This document shows positions 2,912-64,000 of a DNA stretch of 64,000 bases, one piece after another. The notes beneath the pieces are model-generated. The model saw only the letters and a list, made by a program, of their open reading frames with translations, did no database searches and was not told the DNA's origin. Every line of letters starts with the position of its first letter. The stretch's first letter is position 1. Source of the stretch: Candidatus Poribacteria bacterium (lineage in GTDB: Bacteria > Poribacteria > WGA-4E > WGA-3G); contig JAJEDN010000078.1 of NCBI GenBank assembly GCA_022821495.1, positions 30,612-94,611 of the forward strand, written 5' to 3'. A program made the position numbers and the translations under genes.

Positions 2912-5338
2912 GTGTTATCCAACGTTGAAAAAGCGTTAGAATACGATAAAATCAAAGCACTTCTAAAAAATTACACCGCTTCTCAACTCGGGACAGCGAG
3001 GGTCGACACCCTTACGCCGTTTTATGACGTTGATAAGGTTCGCTACTTACAAGCGTTGTGTAGTGAAACGAAGTGTTTTCATCAACTCTACGGCGGGATC
3101 CCGTTAAATGGATTAAGAGACATCCGCGGTTCGCTAAAGCGTGCTGCCAAAACCGGTTCAATTTTGGACGCTGAGGAACTCCTTGAAGTCCGAAAAGTCG
3201 CGAAAATTCCGAGCGACATTCACCGCACCTTTGAAAAACGCGAGCGCGAGGAATTTCCGAACCTCTTTTCCATTGTGGACGTACTGCCCGATTTTCCTGA
3301 ATTAGTTGAGGCAATTGATTATTGCATCAATCCTGAAGGGGTCCTACTGGACAGGGCAAGCCCCGAATTGCGTAATATCCGGCGCAAGTTGTCGCGGCTC
3401 CGTGAAAATATACAACAAAAACTCGAAGCCACCCTCCGATCACCAGAACATCAAAAAGCGATTCAAGAATCCGTCATCACCTCGCGAAATAACCGGTACG
3501 TCATCCCAATTAAACAGGAAGCGCGGTCATTTTTTCCGGGCGTCGTTCAAGGACAATCCACAAGCGGGGCAACCTTCTTCGTCGAACCTTTGGGCGTTGT
3601 GCAGATGAACAATGAACTGCACGAAACCGCTGAAGCCGAACACCGCGAAATTCAACGCATCCTCCTTGACCTCACCGACCGCGTCCGTGCCTATCTGTCA
3701 GCGCTGGAATTGTCCCTTGATTTGTTAGCTGAACTCGATTTTCTGAACGCAAAGGCACGTTTCAGCCTCGAATTGAGTGCTGTTGAACCGAAACTGAATA
3801 CCCGGGGTATCATCAAATTGATTGACGCACGGCATCCGTTGTTGGAATTCCATCTTCGGCATGCACAGAAGGCTGATACAGATCCTGAAGAGGACGCGAA
3901 CCTACCAGACCAGATCGTACCGACAAATGTTCATATCGGTAAAGACTTCAAGACGTTGGTCATCACCGGGCCGAATACTGGCGGCAAAACAGTCGTCCTT
4001 AAAACAGTCGGACTATTGGTGCTGATGGCGCAGTCCGGTCTACATATCCCGGCGGAACACGGGAGTAAAATCGGTATCTTTGAACATGTGTTTGCTGACA
4101 TTGGAGACGACCAAGGCATAGAACAGAATCTGAGTACTTTCTCTTCACACATTACTAAAATCGCGGAGATGCTTAAAACGATTGAGACTTCCGATTATTC
4201 GTTAATTCTATTAGATGAGATTGGTGCTGGTACGGATCCCAGCGAAGGAACAGCACTCGGTATGGCACTCCTCGATTGGCTCGGAAGCCGGCAGGTGAAT
4301 ACCATTGTCACAACACACTATGGAGCTCTTAAAGCGTACGCGCATACCCAGCAATCTATGGAAAATGCCTCAATGGAGTTTGACTGGACGACCCTACGAC
4401 CCACATACCGGTTACAGGTTGGCGTGCCGGGGAGTAGTAACGCATTGAAGATTGCAGCGCAATTAGGGATTCCATCCGAAATCCTTGATGAAGCAGAGAC
4501 GCATATCGGAAACAACAACGTCGCTGTCGAAGATTTACTTGTGCGCTTACAGGAAACGCAAAGCGAATTGGATACCGAACGTGAACGCCTTGAAGATAAA
4601 ATTCGAGAAGCTGACACAGCGTACCAGAAACATACAGAACTCCTTCAGACCTTGGAAGCTGACCAGCAGACGCTGAAACAGCAGGCGGAGAACGAAGCAC
4701 GGAACATCGTTGCGGGTGCAAGGCGCACCGTAGAGAACCTCGTTGCTGATATACGTAAAGAGCAAGCCTCTAAACCGAGCATCCGAAACGCTTTCTCAAA
4801 AATAGAAACCGCCAAAAAATCACTGCAACAAGAAAAGCCTAAGAAACAACCCGAACCATCAAAGAAGGTCAAGATCGAGGTCGGTATTGGTGATAAGGTG
4901 CGAGTCAAGAGACTGAACCGATTCGGGGAGGTTATCGCTATTAAGACCAGCGGAAAAGTGCCACTACAAGTGCTTATGGGGGACATGAAAATGCAAGTCG
5001 CCTACGACGACATTGATTCAGTTCACCCGAAACAGAAAAGCGCGCACCTTTCGACTTCTGTGCTTGATATTCAGTATAACAAAGCCAGTGCCATTAGTGA
5101 TGAACTTGATATGCATGGGATGAGAGCGCAAGAGGCATCGGAGCGCATTAATAAGTACCTTGATGACGCAATCCTCGCGGGATTTCCATCGGTGCGTATT
5201 CTCCACGGGAAAGGAACCGGTGCCTTGCGCCAAGTGGTTCATGCGGCTTTAAAAGAATATCCATACGTCGCTAATTATAAACCTGCGTCCTTTGATGAGG
5301 GCGGCGAAGGTGTAACCGTCGCTACATTCAAAGAGTAA
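2912..5338 (+). CDS. mutS2: Endonuclease MutS2 (MutS domain ATPase + C-terminal Smr)
   Basis: GTG start with aaaagga RBS. Walker A GPNTGGKTVVLKT, LLDEIGAGTDPSEG, C-terminal Smr motif LDMHGMRAQEA...ILHGKGTGALR. Confidence 0.9.
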   Translation: MLSNVEKALEYDKIKALLKNYTASQLGTARVDTLTPFYDVDKVRYLQALCSETKCFHQLYGGIPLNGLRDIRGSLKRAAKTGSILDAEELLEVRKVAKIPSDIHRTFEKREREEFPNLFSIVDVLPDFPELVEAIDYCINPEGVLLDRASPELRNIRRKLSRLRENIQQKLEATLRSPEHQKAIQESVITSRNNRYVIPIKQEARSFFPGVVQGQSTSGATFFVEPLGVVQMNNELHETAEAEHREIQRILLDLTDRVRAYLSALELSLDLLAELDFLNAKARFSLELSAVEPKLNTRGIIKLIDARHPLLEFHLRHAQKADTDPEEDANLPDQIVPTNVHIGKDFKTLVITGPNTGGKTVVLKTVGLLVLMAQSGLHIPAEHGSKIGIFEHVFADIGDDQGIEQNLSTFSSHITKIAEMLKTIETSDYSLILLDEIGAGTDPSEGTALGMALLDWLGSRQVNTIVTTHYGALKAYAHTQQSMENASMEFDWTTLRPTYRLQVGVPGSSNALKIAAQLGIPSEILDEAETHIGNNNVAVEDLLVRLQETQSELDTERERLEDKIREADTAYQKHTELLQTLEADQQTLKQQAENEARNIVAGARRTVENLVADIRKEQASKPSIRNAFSKIETAKKSLQQEKPKKQPEPSKKVKIEVGIGDKVRVKRLNRFGEVIAIKTSGKVPLQVLMGDMKMQVAYDDIDSVHPKQKSAHLSTSVLDIQYNKASAISDELDMHGMRAQEASERINKYLDDAILAGFPSVRILHGKGTGALRQVVHAALKEYPYVANYKPASFDEGGEGVTVATFKE

Positions 5339-24396: not shown

Positions 24397-25230
24397 TTAG
24401 CCTCCAATCGCTAATTTCAAGGTATTTTCTAACAACATTGCGCGCGTCATAGGACCTACGCCACCCGGAACCGGCGTGATAAACCCCGCTACCTCTTTAA
24501 CTTCCTCAAATTTTACATCTCCCACGGCACGTCCATCTATGTGATTAATGCCGACATCAATGACTGTTGCCCCAGGTTTCACCATATCCGCAGTGATAAA
24601 CTCAGATCTGCCGATTGCGACGACAAGAATATCGGCTTTTCGGGCTTCTGCTTTCAGATCAGCAGTGCGGGAATGGCAATAGGTTACGGTGGCATTCCGG
24701 TTTAAGAGCATCAATCCAACCGGTTTACCGACAAGCGGACTCCTACCAATACAAACCGCATGTTTCCCCGCTATTGTTTCTTCTGTCAGTTCAATAAGGC
24801 GGATTATGCCTGTCGGTGTACAAGGTGTCACACCTTCTCGGTTGATCAGAAGATTTCCTAAATTAACAGGATTTAACCCGTCTGCATCTTTATGCGGAGC
24901 GATCGTATCAATAACCGCCTCTTTATCTATATGATCCGGCAACGGCATTTGAACCAACATCCCGTGGATATCTGATCGGGTGTTCAGGGTTTCAATCTGC
25001 TGGATAAGAGATGCTTGGCTGATGTCTGCAGGTAGGCGATGGACTTCGGAATGAAAATGTACCTTCTCACAATCACGTTGTTTATGTTTGATGTAGAGCG
25101 TCGATGCAGGGTCTTCGCCGACTTGAACAACTGCGAGGCCAGGGGTGAACGTAAGTTTCTTTAACTTTCGCCGGATCTGGCTCCGGACACGCTGCGCAAG
25201 GCGGCTACCATTAAGGAGTTCGGCTGACAA
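24397..25230 (-). CDS. folD: Bifunctional methylenetetrahydrofolate dehydrogenase / cyclohydrolase FolD
   Basis: TTG start with ggaggaaaagg RBS. GRSPLVGKPVGLML and cyclohydrolase region. 3 nt gap to the downstream SDR gene. Confidence 0.85.
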   Translation of the reverse strand: MSAELLNGSRLAQRVRSQIRRKLKKLTFTPGLAVVQVGEDPASTLYIKHKQRDCEKVHFHSEVHRLPADISQASLIQQIETLNTRSDIHGMLVQMPLPDHIDKEAVIDTIAPHKDADGLNPVNLGNLLINREGVTPCTPTGIIRLIELTEETIAGKHAVCIGRSPLVGKPVGLMLLNRNATVTYCHSRTADLKAEARKADILVVAIGRSEFITADMVKPGATVIDVGINHIDGRAVGDVKFEEVKEVAGFITPVPGGVGPMTRAMLLENTLKLAIGG

Positions 25231-25649
25231 ATTCCTTTTCCTCCAGATTACGCTTCTTTTAACTTAAATAGATTCAGCATAGTACAATATGCCACGTGAT
25301 GATTAGTATACCATACATTCCTGATTTCACGCACTATTTTTTCAATTTTGCGTGAGTCGGTCGCTTGGATGCTAATATAACTTAAATTCGAGTGAGGTTC
25401 CAGCGCGCAAACGTTGGCAGCTTGGAGACCATTAAAATCGGATGAAATTACTTTTCTCGGCAAATTTTGTGCCGATTTATCTAATAAGGTGCTGCTAAGA
25501 CAGAACAATATCAGATAAATCATATAAATTCAATAAATTATTAATAAATCCAACGTTTTTAATGTATTAATTATGACTATATTAACATAATTCCAAAATA
25601 AATTCCAATATATAGTGAATCGGGAAAATAAAGAGACACTTTCATCTCC

Positions 25650-26035
25650 CGATAGGTTCGGTTTTGCGGTGTACACACCCCAGGGAATGTCATACGGAAA
25701 CCTTTATACCGTTGATTCATACAATCTGTATTCCCAACCAAACCAGATACGACGTGGAAACCTTGAAGACTTCAAAAACCTCCTGAATCCGGTAGGGTTT
25801 ATTTTCTTGGGTGTTTCTTCAGTATCTCTGTAGAGTTCAACCTCCTGAATCCCGTAGGGATGGTATCTCTGTAGAAAAACGCGCCGTCACCGACCTAAGC
25901 CCCGTAGGGGCGATATCTATAGAGGTCTACAGCGAAAAATTAACAGAACGGGACTGAAGACGGGACCTCCACCTTATAGTGTGATGTTTTTCAAACCTCT
26001 CTTGAATCCCGTAGGGATGGTATCTCTGTAAAGAA
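25650..26035. repeat. Composite R3/R4 repeat cluster
   Basis: taggttcggtttt at 25653. R3 copy at 25677-25722. ggaaaccttgaaga at 25757. Copies of CCTCCTGAATCCCGTAGGGATGGTATCTCTGTAGA at 25777, 25841 and 25995, plus the variant AAGCCCCGTAGGGGCGATATCTATAGAGG at 25897. Confidence 0.75.
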
Positions 26036-26057
26036 ACTTGGGTTAAAATATAAGAGG

Positions 26058-26112: not shown

Positions 26113-27285
26113 ATGATTCGTGTAGGTGTAGGACATTCACAGGACCTTTCTACCGCTGATGCAGCGGAACGGGCGACACTCACGGCAATGGGAAACGCCG
26201 GAATTGCCAAAGCGGACCTCGCCATCGTATTTGCAACCATTAACTATCAAATGGAATATGAGCAGTTATACCAAGCAGTTCAAGCCAATTCCAGTTGTGA
26301 CGCGCTTATCGGGTGTAGTGGAATGACCATCTTGACCTCAGGCGGTGAGTTTGAAGAAGAACCTGCGATTGCCGTGATGGTGCTCCGAAGTGAACAACTT
26401 TCTGCCGTCCCTTTTAGCACACAAGGCACGGAAGTCGAGATTAGTGAACAGATACAGGACAGCATTCAATCCGCATTGCGAGATGACTCACTCCTCATAA
26501 TTTTCCCTGATATTCGGACTGTGAATCCGGCTGAACTTGTGAAACAGATTGGTGGTGATGGTACGACCCTGCCTATTGTGGGAGCTGCTGTCTCTGGGGA
26601 TGCGACTGGCGCGCAAATGTACCACTGGAAAGACGCTCAGGCGACAGAGGGCGGTGCTGCAGGTGTACTCTTGAGTGGAAACTTCAACACGGAGATCGGT
26701 GTCGCACAAGGGTGCCAACCTATTGGTAAGCCGCGTGAGGTCACAAAAGCGGATGGCCAGATTATTTTTGAATTAGATGGTGAGCCTGCATTGGAGAACT
26801 TTAAAGGGACATTGCAATTGCTAACGCAAGATGATATTCGACGGTCAGGTGGCACGGTCTTCGTCGGAATTGCGATGGACGATACGAATAAAAATCCGAC
26901 CCGCGGTGATTTCCTCATTCGCAATCTCGTCGGAATTAATGAGGAACACGCTGCGCTGGCTATATCCGAAGAGGTGGAAGTGGGACAGTTGGTGCAGTTT
27001 CATCTACGGAACCCTGCTGCAGCCGCTGCGGAAATTCAGGCGATTGTAGCACAGTTGGCTGAAAAAACACGGGAACAAGTGCCCGCATTCGGGCTCTATT
27101 TCAACTGCTTGGGGCGTGGTAAGGGACTCTACGGTGTGACAAATCACGATATCAACATCATTCAAGAACAGTTTCCAGGTTTACCTGTAATTGGGTTCTT
27201 TGGGAATTCGGAGTTCGCACCGATTGGGGGGCGGAACTTCGCACATGCTTATACCGGGGTGTTTGTACTTTGCACCGAGAACTAA
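26113..27285 (+). CDS. FIST (N + C) domain-containing sensor-like protein
   Basis: N-terminal DLAIVFATINY / GCSGMTIL pattern. C-terminal FGLYFNCLGRGKGLYG...PVIGFFGNSEFAPIGGRNFAHAYTGVFVLC is typical of FIST_C. Confidence 0.7.
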   Translation: MIRVGVGHSQDLSTADAAERATLTAMGNAGIAKADLAIVFATINYQMEYEQLYQAVQANSSCDALIGCSGMTILTSGGEFEEEPAIAVMVLRSEQLSAVPFSTQGTEVEISEQIQDSIQSALRDDSLLIIFPDIRTVNPAELVKQIGGDGTTLPIVGAAVSGDATGAQMYHWKDAQATEGGAAGVLLSGNFNTEIGVAQGCQPIGKPREVTKADGQIIFELDGEPALENFKGTLQLLTQDDIRRSGGTVFVGIAMDDTNKNPTRGDFLIRNLVGINEEHAALAISEEVEVGQLVQFHLRNPAAAAAEIQAIVAQLAEKTREQVPAFGLYFNCLGRGKGLYGVTNHDINIIQEQFPGLPVIGFFGNSEFAPIGGRNFAHAYTGVFVLCTEN

Positions 27286-57392: not shown

Positions 57393-58958
57393 ATGAATAC
57401 CAATCTCGCCGATATCGAAAATAGGCTCTGGAGTGCCGCCGATGAACTCAGAGCCAATTCACGCCTTAAGGCGTCCGAATACTCAACACCTGTCCTCGGG
57501 CTTATCTTTTTACGATACGCCGATCACAAGTTTACACAGGCTGAACAAGACATCAGCAGCGAAGCCGATCCAAACAGCCGCAGGCAGCCCGACCTGAGAA
57601 TGGAATGTCAAGCCCGCGGTGTACTTTATCTGCCAGCGCATTCGCGGTTTCAATACATACTCAGTTTGCCAGAAGGTGAAAATATCGGGCAAGCTATCAC
57701 TGATGCTATGAAGGCAATAGAGGCGGAAAACTCACAAATAGAGGGTGTCCTTCCCAAAACTTACAATCGACTTGAAAAGAACACGCTCCTCGAACTCCTC
57801 CGTATCATGGAACAGATCCCTATGGACATTGAAGGAGATGCTTTCGGGAAGGTTTATGAGTACTTCCTCGGCAATTTCGCCATGAGCGAGGGGCAACGCG
57901 GCGGTGAATTCTTCACACCAACCTCGCTCGTGAAACTCATCGTTGAGATTATCCAACCCTTTCACGGACGCATCCTTGATCCTGCCTGCGGATCCGGTGG
58001 AATGTTTGTCCAGAGTGCAGCGTTCATTAGCAACCACAAGAAAAATGGCAACCCCGGAGACATCAGCATTTACGGCGTTGAACGCGTCGTTGAAACGATC
58101 AGGCTGTGCAAAATGAATCTCGCCGTTCATGCCCTTGAAGGCGATATTAAACAAGCCAGCAGTTACTACGAGGATCCGCACAACTGCCTCGACAGATTTG
58201 ATTTCGTCATGGCAAATCCACCTTTCAACGTCGATCGCGTGGACAGAGAACGGATCAAAGACGATCCGCGATTCCCGTTCGGCATGCCCCGTGTCGATAA
58301 TGCCAACTACCTTTGGATACAATTGTTCTATAGTTCGCTTTCCGAATCCGGGCGTGCAGGTTTCGTCATGGCGAACTCCGCCGCCGATGCCCGTGCCTCT
58401 GAACTCGACATCCGCCGCCAGATTATCGAATCCGGCGCAGTCGATGTCATCGTCAGCATCGCCTCGAATTTCTTTTATACCGTTACCTTACCCTGTACCC
58501 TCTGGTTCTTCGATAAGCCCAAACGGAACAGCGATAGACACGATAAAGTCTTGTTCATTGACGCACGCCATCTCTATCAACAGGTGAGCCGCGCCCATCG
58601 GGAATTCACACCCGGACAACTTGAATTCCTTGCAAACATCGTCAGACTTTATCGCGGAGAAGCACCAGAGAACCAACACGACAGTGCAGATTTCCTCACC
58701 TCAAAATTCCCCGATACAGAATACATTGATGTCCCTGGACTTTGCAAGGTCGCCACGATTGCCGAGATTGAGACACAAGGCTGGAGTCTGAACCCCGGAC
58801 GCTATGTCGGCGTTGACGAACAGACAACCGACGATTTCGACTTCACCGAACGATTTACGCAGCTCAACGAGGAGTTAGCAGTCCTAAACGCCGAAGCACA
58901 TCAACTCGAAGAACGCATCGCCGAGAACGTTGCAAAGATTTTGGAGGATACGGTATAA
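57393..58958 (+). CDS. hsdM: Type I restriction-modification system methyltransferase subunit HsdM (N6-adenine)
   Basis: N-terminal HsdM_N (LWSAADELR). Motif [12 protein letters not shown]. Motif IV ANPPFN. Confidence 0.9.
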
Positions 58959-58976
58959 TGTTGATGGAGGGAAAAA

Positions 58977-59303: not shown

Positions 59304-59336
59304 TTATTGTTTTCCGTAGAGATGGCATCCGTATAA

Positions 59337-59392
59337 GAACAAAAAATCTGGTAACACTCTGAAGAATGTGGCATAATATTACAGAGGCAGGT
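59337..59392 (+). promoter_or_regulatory. Promoter-like 50-bp repeat copy 1 (extended -10 TGGCATAAT), oriented antisense to the HNH gene
   Basis: aaaaaatctggtaacactctgaagaatgtggcataatattacagag is ~80% identical to 60159-60212. Confidence 0.4.
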
Positions 59393-59450
59393 TTTGAATA
59401 ATAAGATAAAAGGACGAAGGCTATTTTCCGTCGCCCATTTGTGTAAGCGT

Positions 59451-59711
59451 TTACCTTTTTTTGTACGGATATTTCGTCCCTTTACGGCGGTTCTCCTTCG
59501 TTTGAAGTGCCTGAAGGTTGCGAGGATTGTCGGTTCCCCCCTTTGACTTAGGGCGTTTATGATCTACTTGCCAACTTTGTTTGCCCTCTTTACCATACGC
59601 AGGCTTGTAGATTTTATTGCCGCTTGAGTCACGTCGCCAGAGATTCGGGTTTTTACCTCGAATTGGTTTGGCTTTTTTCCAAGCGATTTCTTTTTGTTTT
59701 CGCGTTGCCAT
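59451..59711 (-). CDS. Small basic HNH nuclease-domain protein (86 aa)
   Basis: WQVDHKRPKSKGGTDNPRNLQALQTKENRRKG HNH motif. aagaggtg RBS. Own TTGACA, 17 nt spacer, TAATAT promoter. Confidence 0.7.
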   Translation of the reverse strand: MATRKQKEIAWKKAKPIRGKNPNLWRRDSSGNKIYKPAYGKEGKQSWQVDHKRPKSKGGTDNPRNLQALQTKENRRKGTKYPYKKR

Positions 59712-59747
59712 TTTTATTTCACCTCTTTTCTTTCGGTTATAGTTTAT

Positions 59748-59776
59748 ATATTAACATGTGTTGCGATATTTGTCAA
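59748..59776 (-). promoter_or_regulatory. Consensus sigma70 promoter of the HNH gene (minus strand)
   Basis: Reverse complement of 59748-59776 reads ttgacaaatatcgcaacacatgttaatat. Confidence 0.55.
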
Positions 59777-59820
59777 CCATAAGCGTCAATTTTAGAAACA
59801 ATAACCGCCTCCGCCCCAGA

Positions 59821-60100
59821 CCCGGTAGGTTCGGTTTCCTAACCGAACCGGATACTACGCGGAAACCTTGGATATGCCAGAACCCCTCTTTAGCCCCGTA
59901 GAGGCGGCATCTGTGTAGAACGCGTTCACCCCTAAAAAATCAAGCCCCGTAGGGGCGGCATCTATTAAGTAAGGCCCTACAAAATACCGTGAAAAAAATC
60001 TAAATCGACCCTTATGGGGCGGCATCTACAAAGACCTGTCAAAAATGTCGTGGAAAATCGCTAAATTGACACCTATGGTTCGGTTTCCTAACCGCACCGG
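59821..60100. repeat. Composite R4 repeat cluster
   Basis: Bracketed by direct copies of ggttcggtttcctaaccg[ac]accgg (59829-59851, 60077-60100). Contains ggaaaccttggata and 3 units of AGCCCCGTAGGGGCGGCATCT + ...gtgaaaaaatc (59892, 59943, 60007). Homologous to 25650-26035. Confidence 0.75.
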
Positions 60101-60158
60101 ATTGTCGAAAAGCGGCGTGAAATTCAAGATTTTCTTAAAACTAAATGGTCCTGATATC

Positions 60159-60212
60159 ACACTAAAAAATCTGGCAATTCTCTGATGCGTATGCTATAAT
60201 ATCGTAGAGAAA
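60159..60212 (+). promoter_or_regulatory. Promoter-like 50-bp repeat copy 2 (extended -10 TGCTATAAT) upstream of the 380-aa unknown gene
   Basis: aaaaaatctggcaattctctgatgcgtatgctataatatcgtagag. Gene start at 60281 with aaaagga RBS. Confidence 0.5.
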
Positions 60213-61449: not shown

Positions 61450-62619
61450 ATGCCAAACAGCGAAGTTCTAATTGGGGATTACATTCAAACCCTAAGAAAA
61501 AAACATAAAATAAAAAAATCTGAGTATTTATCCAGCGGTAATATTCCCGTGGTTGACCAAGGTCAAGACTTTATTGCTGGTTACATAGATGATACCAAGC
61601 GAGCTTATGATGGGCAACTTCCTGTCATTGTCTTCGGCGACCACACCTGCACTTTGAAATATGTAGATTTCCCCTTTGCAGTAGGCGCAGATGGTACACA
61701 GCTGATACATCCTACAAAGGACTTTGACATCCGTTACTTCTATTATGCATTACAAAATTTGCCTTTGGAACATTTCGGCTATCAAAGGCATTTTAAGTAT
61801 CTAAAAACGTCAAAAGTTTTTTGCCCACCGATGCACATCCAGCGCAAAATCGCCGCCATCCTCTCCACCTACGATAACCTCATTGAAAACAACACCCGCC
61901 GCATCAAAATCCTTGAAGACATGGCACAAACCCTCTACCAAGAATGGTTCGTCCATTTCCGCTTCCCCGGACATGAGAACGTCCAGATGGTAGAATCGGA
62001 ATTAGGACTGATACCACAGGAATGGAAGGTAGTTCCTGCAAGTGAAGCCATGTTTGTAAATCCAAAAACTTCTGTTCCACGCGATACCATAAAACCATTT
62101 GTCCCAATGAAGTCAGCGACAGAAAATTCAATGCTAATCACCGAAATCGAAGAAAGAACGGGAAATAGTGGGGCGAAGTTTAAAAATGGAGACACGCTAT
62201 TTGCGCGTATCACACCATGTCTTGAAAACGGTAGAACGGGTTTTGTTCAGTTTCTGTCTAATAATGATGAGATCGCTTTTGGATCTACCGAATTTATCGT
62301 CCTCAGGTCCAAAACGTTGAATCCATATTTTGTCTATCTTTTGGCACAGACTCGCGATTTTAGGGAGAATGCTATCAAGAGTATGACAGGTGCAACAGGC
62401 AGACAGCGTGTTCTCAATGAATGTTTCGATGATTATTTTTTACCAAATCCTGATCAAGATGTACTTTGTCAATTTGAATCTACCATTGCCCCTCTGTTCA
62501 GGAAAGTTCAGAGTCTTTCGGAAAGAAATGAGAATCTCCGCCAAACCCGAGACTTCCTTCTCCCTAAACTCATCTCCGGCGAGACTGATGTATCTAAACT
62601 TGACATTAACACCAATTGA
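61450..62619 (+). CDS. hsdS: Type I restriction-modification system specificity subunit HsdS (two TRDs)
   Basis: N-terminal LIGDYIQTLRKKHKIK...IPVVDQGQDFIAGYIDD. Central conserved repeat ILEDMAQTLYQEWFVHFRFPGHE. C-terminal RQTRDFLLPKLISGE. Confidence 0.85.
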   Translation: MPNSEVLIGDYIQTLRKKHKIKKSEYLSSGNIPVVDQGQDFIAGYIDDTKRAYDGQLPVIVFGDHTCTLKYVDFPFAVGADGTQLIHPTKDFDIRYFYYALQNLPLEHFGYQRHFKYLKTSKVFCPPMHIQRKIAAILSTYDNLIENNTRRIKILEDMAQTLYQEWFVHFRFPGHENVQMVESELGLIPQEWKVVPASEAMFVNPKTSVPRDTIKPFVPMKSATENSMLITEIEERTGNSGAKFKNGDTLFARITPCLENGRTGFVQFLSNNDEIAFGSTEFIVLRSKTLNPYFVYLLAQTRDFRENAIKSMTGATGRQRVLNECFDDYFLPNPDQDVLCQFESTIAPLFRKVQSLSERNENLRQTRDFLLPKLISGETDVSKLDINTN

Positions 62620-62633
62620 AACATAGAGGTAAA

Positions 62634-64000
62634 TGATGCTTTCAGGAGTTCTAACAGAAGTTTACAAAGACATTCGTGGAGCAATTAAGAAGAAACGCGA
62701 AGAGTCAGAGGCAGAAAAGGCAGAAATTGAAAATGCCGCCCACCAGTATGAGAAGAAATACAGAGAACACCACGGCCAAGTCAAAGTCTTCTGTGTAGGT
62801 ATGCGTGAACCGATCCCTCTTGATGATGTCTATGTCGCCGTTCAATTCTTAGACAATCAAAGCACATCAAAGTACGGAACCCCTGAAGATGTTGAAAAGG
62901 CATTCCGACAAAGATCTCCAAACCGCTTTATTTCAAGTGCCGATGAGCGAAAAGATGGAACGGTGGTTGCTAACGAAAAACAGTATCTGATGGTACTCGG
63001 CGGGCCCGGTGTCGGTAAATCAACCTTCCTTCGTAAGGTTGGACTTGAAGCATTAAAAGGGGAGAACGGAAACTTTGAACACGCATGTATCCCTGTCTTC
63101 CTTGAACTAAACAGGTTTACTGAAACTCAGATTGAGATTGAAACCGTAATTGCTGACAAATTTAAGACCTACCACTATCCATACCTGGATAAAATGGTTA
63201 GAAGTGCATTAGATTCGGGGAAATTCCTGATACTTTTCGACGGACTTGACGAAGTCCCTGCTGCGAATGTTGACAATGTAGTGCGTAAAATTGGAGATTT
63301 CGTCGATCGATATAGCCAAAACCGCTTTATCGCTTCATGTCGGATAGCGGCATATAAAGGAGGGTTCACGCGGTTTACAGAAGTCGAGATGGCGGAATTT
63401 GACGATGCACAGATTAAGGTGTATATCAAAAATTGGTTTGATTCAACACCTCACCAATACCGGTATCAACTTGACAAGGATATGAAAACTGCCCAAAATT
63501 GCTGGCAGGCGTTAAACTCAATAGGACATCACGCGACCAAGGAGTTGGCGCGGAATCCGTTATTACTCACGCTTCTATGTCTGGTTTACGACAACTCGCA
63601 AAACTTCCCGCGAAATCGGGCAGATCTCTATGAAAAAGCACTCAGCATATTTCTTGAGGAATGGGCGGCTGAAAAGCGGATCAGCCGAGAAGAATCAATC
63701 AGTCAGTACTTGGACATTGCGGCTGAAAAACGGATGCTTTCTGAAATCGCAGCGAAGAATTTCGAGGAAAACCGCCTCTTTTTCAGTAAGGATGAACTCA
63801 TCGATCAGATTCAAAAATTCGGTGACGGGAATGCCAATACACCACCAGAGTTCAATGCCCCCAAGATCTTAGAAACAATTCTTGTTGATCAGGGACTTTT
63901 CATTGAGCAAGTTAGCGGCTCCTACTCTTTCTCTCATTTGACCTTTCAAGAGTATTTGACAGCGAATTATATCGTAAGGGATACGAGGTCAATTCAAGGG
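62634..64000 (+). CDS. NACHT-domain STAND NTPase (partial, continues beyond window end). This ORF is absent from the supplied ORF track
   Basis: agagg RBS then ATGATG. Walker A LMVLGGPGVGKSTFLRKV. Walker B FLILFDGLDEV. NACHT-type NPLLLTLLCLVY. No stop before 64000. Confidence 0.75.

Follow-up and report, generated by a model that had tools for sequence, protein, structure and literature searches.

In a 64-kb stretch of DNA from Candidatus Poribacteria, a sponge symbiont, two similar promoter-like sequences flank the gene for a small HNH nuclease. We propose that these two sequences are diverged paralogues of one locus-specific promoter element of the extended -10 (TGnTATAAT) type. The stretch as a whole, which we will call the window, is 99.5% identical to ENA scaffold KELL22-1 scaffold_162. 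The locus is a Type I restriction-modification (R-M) defence island, and its genes run, from left to right, hsdM, HTH_37, copy 1 of the element, the HNH gene (on the minus strand), a cluster of dispersed repeats, copy 2, DUF2806, hsdS, and NACHT (Table 1). We propose that copy 2 drives DUF2806 and hsdS, that copy 1 is convergent on HNH, and that copy 1 is the older element and copy 2 a local duplicate that is restricted to this lineage. We give this explanation as a whole a probability of roughly 50%.

The direct repeat spans 55 nt (59332-59386 and 60155-60209), and 39 of the 55 positions (71%) are identical without gaps; in the common core (59341-59386 and 60164-60209), identity is 34/46 or 74%. 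An earlier note on this DNA had put the identity at about 80%, which is too high. The same note had correctly seen that both copies carry an extended -10 box (TGG-CATAAT in copy 1 and TGC-TATAAT in copy 2) and that copy 2 lies ahead of the gene for a 380-amino-acid protein: the start of DUF2806 is 72 nt 3' of copy 2. A scan for the sigma-70 consensus called copy 2 as sigma-70-like (CTGGCA-18-TATAAT, 10/12, with TG). When copy 1 was shuffled, its identity to copy 2 was 54.7 ± 5.4%, with a maximum of 69.6%.

The element appears to be specific to this locus. Its 22-nt core pattern has two matches in the window, with 0.01 expected. When we searched 954 kb of Poribacteria DNA on both strands (~1.9 Mb) with copy 1 as a single-sequence query, the top non-self match was copy 2 (score 23), and the runner-up (score 18) lies within a TPR coding region. 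We also built a profile from all copies of the element and compared it to the window and to 890 kb of other Poribacteria DNA, which included 137 instances of the dispersed repeats. The only strong matches in the window were the two copies (E ~1e-13), and nothing was found in the other 890 kb (best E about 1). A weak third match in the window (58918-58963, E = 1.3e-3) corresponds to the TTGCAA-18-TATAAT site at the 3' end of hsdM; all other promoters in the window had E ≥0.15. Orthologues of the hsdM site in L013, L014, L161, and L163 also match the profile. (The labels L001-L164 denote loci or alleles that we compared with the window, many of which were found by exact-protein look-ups.) The core of the hsdM site is 53-71% identical to the copies, which is close to the shuffled baseline. 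The earlier note had worried that the element might be a generic promoter found in front of dozens of unrelated genes. Since neither the profile nor the single-sequence search gave further copies in the window or the 890 kb of other Poribacteria DNA, we reject this reading.

We rejected three other readings of the repeat or its surroundings. The CTGGCA of copy 2 is not part of a sigma-54 promoter, as the GG-to-GC spacing does not fit. Where hsdS abuts HNH, the hsdS promoter AAGAATGTTGTGATAAT looked similar to copy 1 by eye, but the profile gave no support for this. And the likeness just 5' of the copies (AGATGGCATCC... vs. AAATGGTCCTG...) was dropped because the two sequences belong to two different repeat families. 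Rfam searches of the region and of its best-preserved relative gave nothing near the thresholds.

The two copies are distributed differently across the alleles compared. Copy 2 is present only in the window, L001, and L002, and its closest relative is copy 1 of the same genome (74%). L002 holds a third copy, which is nearly identical to the copy 1 of lineage D. An orthologue of copy 1 is found at the 3' flank of HNH in four lineages: A (the window, L013, L015, L017, and L018), B (L003-L012), D (L141, L143, L144, and L146), and E (L156). In the window, the distance from copy 1 to the stop codon of HNH is 74 nt. The left neighbours of copy 1 vary and may be HTH_37 of type 1, HTH_37 of type 2, or arrays of repetitive extragenic palindromic (REP)-like units beside a binding-protein gene. 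All orthologues of copy 1 retain the extended -10 motif, and the best-kept columns are TGn(C/T)AT(A/G)AT and, at the -35 position, a T(C/T)TG.

In the lineages with an orthologue of copy 1, a hairpin with an A-run and a T-run always lies ~35 nt 3' of it. This hairpin looks like a bidirectional terminator in the relatives, with predicted fold energies of -22.6 kcal/mol in L156 (z = -5.0), -23.7 in L143 (z = -4.0), and -18.5 in L013 (z = -3.0). In the window it has decayed (-9.5 kcal/mol, z = +0.8). We compared the identity of the 110 nt from copy 1 to the hairpin with the identity predicted from the synonymous divergence (dS) of HNH, which was 0.64-1.19 for the comparisons among lineages A, D, and E. 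Observed identity was above prediction for A and E (81% vs. 49%), for A and D (70% vs. 40%), and for D and E (75% vs. 57%).

The HNH gene was placed correctly by the earlier note (Table 1). Besides its above-threshold match to PF01844 (Table 1), the protein scores just below the cut-off for PF13395 (21.2 vs. 22). Residues D50-H51, N65, and N74 are invariant in 35 HNH homologues and are kept in five lineages. The gene is under purifying selection, with a ratio of nonsynonymous to synonymous divergence (dN/dS) of 0.06-0.17 at a dS of 0.5-1.2 between lineages. Among NCBIfam families, the protein comes closest to the HNH domains of IscB and Cas9d, in both cases below threshold. With regard to the beta-beta-alpha-metal fold, an AlphaFold2 model reached a mean confidence (pLDDT) of 81.8, with the other four models at 55-64, and the top Foldseek matches of the model in the PDB are HNH cores (colicin E7, the Gme HNH nickase 4h9d, ScoMcrA, and the HNH domain of Cas9), all with E above 1. 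A sequence search of the PDB with the protein found no relative. The position and orientation of HNH are constant across the recovered alleles of the locus.

The plus strand between the two copies has no open reading frame of 60 or more amino acids, as the earlier note had said. We rejected a 50-amino-acid plus-strand frame antisense to HNH (59394-59546), which shows no conservation; L003 and L156 have a stop after 9 codons, and the window has no ATG for it. A 9-codon plus-strand frame lies on the terminator hairpin (59409-59441 in the window) and reads MAIFHRPFV in L156, MDIFRRPFV in L013, and MNDFHGSFT in L003; it has no ATG in the window and no stop in L143 or L014. It is probably a by-product of the conservation of the hairpin.

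Homologues of HNH are also found in other settings. In several lineages of Poribacteria (L137-L140, L141-L146, and L156), the gene lies between hsdM and either hsdS or DUF2806 and is read from the other strand. The neighbourhood of L137 is at a different place on the chromosome, with Mrr and AP_endonuc_2 nearby. Homologues from outside the phylum are 55-71% identical and occur in unrelated contexts, such as at the end of a Vibrio cholerae prophage or beside a Bro-N gene. A scan of JGI metagenomes found only distant HNH relatives, which lacked the element.

Our proposal for how the locus would work is as follows. The HNH gene lies on the opposite strand, is served by a strong promoter and a hairpin terminator, and interrupts a row of genes that reads hsdM-HTH_37 on one side and DUF2806-hsdS-NACHT on the other. 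Copy 2 would restart transcription of DUF2806-hsdS-NACHT past HNH and ~370 nt of hairpin-rich repeats. Copy 1 would fire convergently toward the 3' end of HNH, and its product would be a short or antisense RNA. In relatives that still have an intact terminator, this RNA would be ~60 nt long and would overlap the terminator of the HNH mRNA. In the window, with its decayed hairpin, we would expect more read-through, giving antisense RNA over HNH and on toward DUF2806-hsdS. We would expect HNH to be dampened, either by transcriptional interference (polymerase collision) or by RNA pairing. The comparisons show the repeat and its locus specificity, the linkage and conservation of copy 1, the alleles without HNH, and the nature of the repeat cluster; the activity of either copy as a promoter, the starts and ends of the transcripts, and any effect on HNH are inferred.

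Several observations weigh against this proposal. First, the consensus scan did not call copy 1 in the window, as its -35 box (CTGGTA) matches at only 3 of 6 positions, where at least 4 at a spacing of 16-18 nt are required. The orthologues of copy 1 in L156 and L143, with a spacer of 19 nt, were not called either; across the three, the -35 box is weak (3-4 of 6) and the spacer is 18-19 nt. (Extended -10 promoters can work without a -35 box.) The scan itself relies on the sigma-70 consensus and assumes that the promoter rules of Poribacteria are sigma-70-like. Second, lineages A and B are 66% identical in the copy-1 region where 65% was predicted, so there is no excess over neutral; more generally, these predictions use dS from only 86 codons, which is noisy, and gapped global alignment raises identity (the baseline is ~55%). 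Third, copy 1 is split at its -10 box by a miniature inverted-repeat transposable element (MITE) of ~170 nt in L002, L014, and L016, and by an insertion sequence (IS) in L142 and L145. All of these alleles encode an intact HNH protein, so copy 1 is dispensable. Fourth, lineage F (L137) has hsdM, a convergent HNH, and DUF2806, but it has neither copy. Finally, neither insertion nor deletion of the HNH block is favoured by the comparison of alleles.

The insertions have some features of their own. Two MITE-like insertions were seen (L002 ~1440-1610 and ~1615-1775, and the equivalent site of L014 and L016). The ~170-nt MITE has terminal inverted repeats CCTAAGTTGCCACC and GGTAGCAAGTTGGG and is inserted directly after the -10 box of copy 1, and the other insertion is bounded by GTAGGTTGGGTAGAG ... 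CTACCCAACCTGC. The IS in L142 and L145 (HTH_Tnp_4) split the same -10 box independently.

We considered that HNH and copy 1 might form a dedicated pair, similar to a type I toxin-antitoxin (TA) system, in which HNH is a toxin and the RNA from copy 1 is a cis-antisense antitoxin that overlaps the 3' end of its mRNA via a shared bidirectional terminator (as in par/Fst and txpA/RatA). The convergent promoter-like element and the shared hairpin terminator are conserved across four or five lineages, purifying selection acts on HNH, which also has its own strong promoter, and the block is either there or missing as a whole, as expected for a selfish module. Nuclease toxins with RNA antitoxins are known (SymE and RalR). 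However, in the alleles where a MITE or IS splits copy 1, the HNH protein is not just intact but identical. Furthermore, besides L137, ten more distant HNH loci, including the one at the end of the Vibrio cholerae prophage, have no convergent extended -10 box within 220 nt. And if termination is efficient, then the overlap of the two RNAs would be limited to the terminator. We consider a dedicated pair unlikely. Because of the splits in alleles with an intact HNH, L137, and the ten distant loci, copy 1 is instead a clade-specific and dispensable companion of HNH and not an obligatory antitoxin. The earlier note had offered a cis-antisense regulator, with toxin/antitoxin-like control of the nuclease, as one of two ideas. 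The antisense part remains plausible, given the geometry (copy 1 faces the 3' end of HNH) and the comparisons among lineages A, D, and E (70-81% identity where 40-57% was predicted), but the same splits and the ten distant loci tell against toxin/antitoxin-like dependence.

We can also speculate that copy 1, the bidirectional terminator, and HNH make up a self-contained, RNA-controlled nuclease module. The ~60-nt convergent RNA would silence HNH, and a loss of this control, such as when a phage shuts off host transcription or blocks restriction, would free an effector of abortive infection. To our knowledge, no type I TA-like system with an HNH toxin has been described, and we view this scenario as rather improbable.

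Another explanation is that copy 1 has no function and is a relic: it would be the former internal promoter of an hsdM-HTH_37-hsdS operon, stranded by a reverse-oriented block containing HNH, with copy 2 (or, in other lineages, a TGTGATAAT site) taking over its role. Some alleles of the same locus do lack HNH. In L161 and L162, HTH_37 is followed after 30 nt by DUF2806 and then hsdS, and in L163 and L164, it is followed after 28 nt by hsdS and NACHT. Since these alleles exist, we can delimit the part that is present or absent: it is a block of ~440-460 bp (~59.32-59.78 kb) with copy 1, the terminator, HNH, and the HNH promoter. The relic explanation fits the short distance from HTH_37 to the next gene in these alleles, and the 28-nt spacer of L163 has one TGGTATAAT (the spacer of L162 has none). 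It also fits with copy 1 pointing in the same direction as the operon, with its tolerance of disruption, and with its about neutral conservation between lineages A and B. But neither spacer scores against the element profile. Also, copy 1 stays next to HNH even where HTH_37 is 5 kb away (lineages B and D), and its conservation is above neutral among lineages A, D, and E. We think it unlikely that copy 1 is a mere relic.

The sequence shared by the copies might also be an operator. HTH_37 would then act as an R-M controller (C) protein or a HigA-type repressor and would co-regulate the island by binding similar sites that overlap the -10 boxes of its own promoter, of copy 1, and of copy 2. Control by C proteins is known from R-M systems (PMC12707154). 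The HTH gene is directly 5' of copy 1, and the weak third relative of the element lies before HTH_37. The copies also have imperfect palindromes centred on the -10 box (in copy 2 of L002, the palindrome is perfect: CTATGATAT-A-ATATCATAG), and L137 lacks both HTH_37 and the two copies. However, the palindromes overlap TATAATAT and are mostly a by-product of it, and they are not distinctive; the promoter-like site before HTH_37 barely exceeds the identity of shuffled sequence; and copy 1 persists with both alleles of HTH_37, which are only 58-66% identical to each other. An operator shared across the island seems quite doubtful.

The other idea of the earlier note was that the repeats are scars of recombination or target duplication that mark the ends of a mobile HNH cassette of ~820 bp, possibly a free-standing homing-endonuclease element. 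As described above, HNH is polymorphic for presence and absence at one intergenic site. Comparison of the window to L002 places the breakpoints beside the -10 boxes, at 58949/58950 and 59377, and the HNH family is spread over phyla and mobile contexts such as the Vibrio prophage end. But copy 2 is missing from most of the alleles with HNH (L003-L018, L141-L146, and L156). Because copy 2 is limited to the window, L001, and L002, and is closest to copy 1 of its own genome, the two repeats do not mark out a unit. The right end of the conserved block is the promoter of HNH (~59780), not copy 2. In all other alleles with HNH, the sequence 5' of the HNH promoter is different: either hsdS starts 122-130 nt from the start of HNH, or there is a stretch with a different repeat and a BrnT/BrnA remnant. 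The right-hand breakpoint is explained by the MITE insertion, the search of 954 kb gave no further copy of the element, and a protein of 86 amino acids (the HNH core only) has no room for a specificity domain. Thus, the part of the cassette idea that holds up is that HNH is in a block that is present or absent; the repeats as its ends do not, and we consider an ~820-bp cassette very unlikely.

What lies between the HNH promoter and copy 2 (59780-60153) is made up entirely of two families of dispersed repeats, namely a GGTTCGG hairpin and a REP-like unit (CCCCGTAGGGGCGGCATCT...). The 18-mer GGTTCGGTTTCCTAACCG of the hairpin family is found in at least 118 stretches, all of which are from metagenome-assembled genomes of Candidatus Poribacteria. 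The end of the GGTTCGG subfamily (...AAACTRAATGAYCCTG / ...AATGGTCCTG, or AATGAYCCTG) is immediately 5' of copy 2, and the flanks diverge thereafter. Because the subfamily ends immediately before copy 2, copy 2 is not part of it. So we rejected the possibility that the copies are part of a dispersed repeat: the repeat ends just 5' of copy 2, and the element profile was blank around the 137 repeat instances.

Finally, the similarity of the two copies could be due to chance or to a generic resemblance between two AT-rich promoters, given that 8 or 9 of the shared bases are the extended -10 consensus and that the baseline for global alignments is ~55%, but this has a negligible probability because the copies also share the 11-mer AAAAAATCTGG and CTCTGA outside of the -10 box, the core pattern is found twice where 0.01 is expected, copy 2 is the top match in ~1.9 Mb, and the other promoters in the window have E ≥0.15.

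The dispersed repeats are of interest apart from HNH. The hairpin repeat, GGTTCGGTTTCCTAACCG(A/C)ACCGGAT, is often combined with ...AACCATAGGCGTCAATTTAG... modules, either in tandem or inverted. REP-like units are also found elsewhere in the window, at 25852, 25902, and 26009. They are in a second repeat-rich intergenic region (25640-26040), between a folD-like gene (24397-25230, minus strand) and a FIST gene (26113-27285), with units such as CCCGTAGGGATGGTATCTCTGTAGAAA. There are also long variants of the REP-like unit, with GGGTGTTTCTTC inserts in the loop, and in relatives the units form arrays with spacers of ~20 nt. We rejected the possibility that these arrays are similar to CRISPRs (clustered regularly interspaced short palindromic repeats), because the "spacers" are just ~20 nt, some of them recur, and the units at 25.85-26.03 kb are beside unrelated genes.

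Table 1. Features of the hsd island around the HNH gene (positions in the window).
Feature	Position	Strand	Details
hsdM, Type I methyltransferase, first gene of the island	57393..58958	+	Pfam N6_Mtase 1.4e-81, HsdM_N; PADLOC MTase_I 3.8e-222
Promoter-like site TTGCAA-18-TATAAT in the 3' end of hsdM, 5' of HTH_37	58930..58959	+	Scan 10/12
HTH_37 (XRE/HigA-like) DNA-binding protein, 108 amino acids	58977..59303	+	Pfam HTH_37 3e-14
Degenerate REP-like unit TTTTCCGTAGAGATGGCATCCGTATAA abutting copy 1	59310..59336	+	Family D1/D3; 67-77% identity to the units at 59892, 59943, and 60007
Copy 1 (c1), core: -35-like CTGGTA 59348-59353, 18-nt spacer, TGG-CATAAT 59369-59377	59341..59386	+	Aims at the 3' end of HNH
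Putative leader of copy 1 (~30 nt) and hairpin 59413-59432 between A-run and T-run; terminator of HNH	59378..59450	+	Minus-strand terminator-like match 59432-59413
Small stand-alone HNH nuclease, 86 amino acids, Cas9/IscB-type HNH core	59451..59711	-	Pfam HNH (PF01844) 28.1 bits vs. cut-off 21.4
Promoter of the HNH gene, TTGACA-17-TAATAT with TG; the conserved HNH block ends here on the right	59748..59776	-	Scan 10/12; kept in all lineages
"Repeat cassette": cluster of Poribacteria-wide dispersed repeats	59780..60153	+	GGTTCGGTTTCCTAACCG hairpins 59828-59853, 60077-60102; REP-like units 59892-59912, 59943-59963, 60007-60027
Copy 2 (c2): CTGGCA 60171-60176, 18-nt spacer, TGC-TATAAT 60192-60200	60155..60209	+	Scan 10/12 with TG; likely promoter of DUF2806-hsdS-NACHT
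DUF2806 protein, 380 amino acids	60281..61423	+	Pfam DUF2806 2.1e-22; TIGR03899 below threshold
hsdS specificity subunit	61450..62619	+	Pfam Methylase_S; PADLOC Specificity_I 3.3e-78

DUF2806, hsdS, and NACHT are co-directional, with a gap of 26 nt between DUF2806 and hsdS. The gene 3' of hsdS encodes a NACHT NTPase of 768 amino acids (62636-64000, continuing past the end of the window). In L001 (1-5553), the genes beyond NACHT encode an AAA_15/AAA_21 ATPase with a faint DUF4276 partner. No hsdR was seen for the window or in the stretch of L001 that we covered; hsdR is downstream in the related alleles L013, L014, L156, and L161. Genes for PIN, DUF5615/DUF433, UPF0175, and ParE proteins lie ahead of hsdR in related alleles, and the island is dense and highly variable.

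The HTH_37 gene of the window has no toxin partner, while its paralogues in L003 and L013 are paired with Gp49/HigB. One of the two alleles of HTH_37 matches the Gp49/HigB-linked paralogue, and the alleles are mosaic relative to the presence of HNH. A look-up of the exact HTH_37 sequence of the window gave no match. The 3' end of hsdM (its last ~100 nt, with a TATAAT overlapping the stop codon) moves with HTH_37 as a duplicated or relocated unit (L161/L162 3900-3975; L163 3392-3982). We also noticed a BrnA-like N-terminal module of ~60 amino acids (K-R-D-P-M-P-P-P-D-A-T-P-E-E-I-G-E-F-W-D-T-H) that is free-standing, fused to DUF2806, or fused to hsdS (in L013-L016, upstream of the HNH side; in L161-L164, at 4355-4460). 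In some alleles, a truncated BrnT-like remnant lies 5' of this module.

If copy 1 is active, then an accessory nuclease within a Type I R-M island would be held in check by convergent transcription, and the promoter responsible would have been copied locally to rescue the interrupted operon. Antisense control of restriction genes, which so far is a feature of Type II systems, would then extend to the embedded defence genes of an uncultivated sponge symbiont, and small indels together with a promoter duplication would have rewired a defence island. If copy 1 is inactive, then the locus would have an ordinary duplicated promoter beside a repeat-rich intergenic region. Either way, our analysis documents a conserved link between small HNH genes and hsd loci in Poribacteria, as well as two abundant families of Poribacteria repeats.

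How does this locus compare to known systems? Convergent transcription with a shared bidirectional terminator is found in the type I TA systems par/Fst (RNA I-RNA II) and txpA/RatA, and SymE/SymR and RalR/RalA have nuclease toxins. Similarly, the gene here is small and has a strong promoter, and a putative convergent promoter points at it from just past its 3' end; a hairpin with A/T runs lies in between, and the predicted RNA is short. Unlike in those systems, copy 1 is dispensable in several alleles and is absent from other homologues of HNH. We know of no type I toxin of the HNH type. T4-like phages have free-standing HNH homing endonuclease genes (the mob genes). These are similar to our locus in that a small HNH gene, complete with promoter and terminator, lies between conserved genes and is present or absent depending on the allele. 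However, our HNH gene is on a bacterial chromosome, it encodes a catalytic core of 86 amino acids without a DNA-recognition domain, and its flanks are mosaic rather than cleanly cut. The repeats at 59780-60153 and the unit at 59310-59336 are similar to intergenic repeats of the REP or MITE type, as hairpin repeats that are abundant in Poribacteria genomes, but the promoter-like copies are outside the ends of the repeats and were found nowhere else in the 890 kb sampled.

Among R-M loci, PrrC is embedded in the Type I hsd locus of EcoprrI, where it runs in the direction of the other genes and has a demonstrated link to the restriction enzyme (PMC12707154). The island described here likewise has extra defence-type genes (HNH, DUF2806, NACHT, and AAA_15/DUF4276) interleaved with hsdM, hsdS, and hsdR, but HNH is on the opposite strand. 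A close parallel for copy 1 is found in the reverse (antisense) promoters that act against the nuclease gene in the EcoRI and Eco29kI R-M systems (PMC12707154; Mruk et al. 2011 and Nagornykh et al. 2011, as cited there). A convergent or antisense architecture is documented for these restriction genes and for many toxin-antitoxin systems (PMC12707154). In both cases, a promoter in or next to an R-M locus fires, or would fire, against a nuclease gene, and collision and antisense pairing are proposed to lower its expression. EcoRI and Eco29kI differ in being Type II systems, with the reverse promoter inside the restriction gene and the restriction enzyme itself as the target; here, the target would be an accessory HNH gene (86 amino acids) on the opposite strand of a Type I locus, and the putative promoter lies beyond its 3' end. 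Overall, the locus is an instance of a known promoter and antisense architecture and not a new kind of mobile element.

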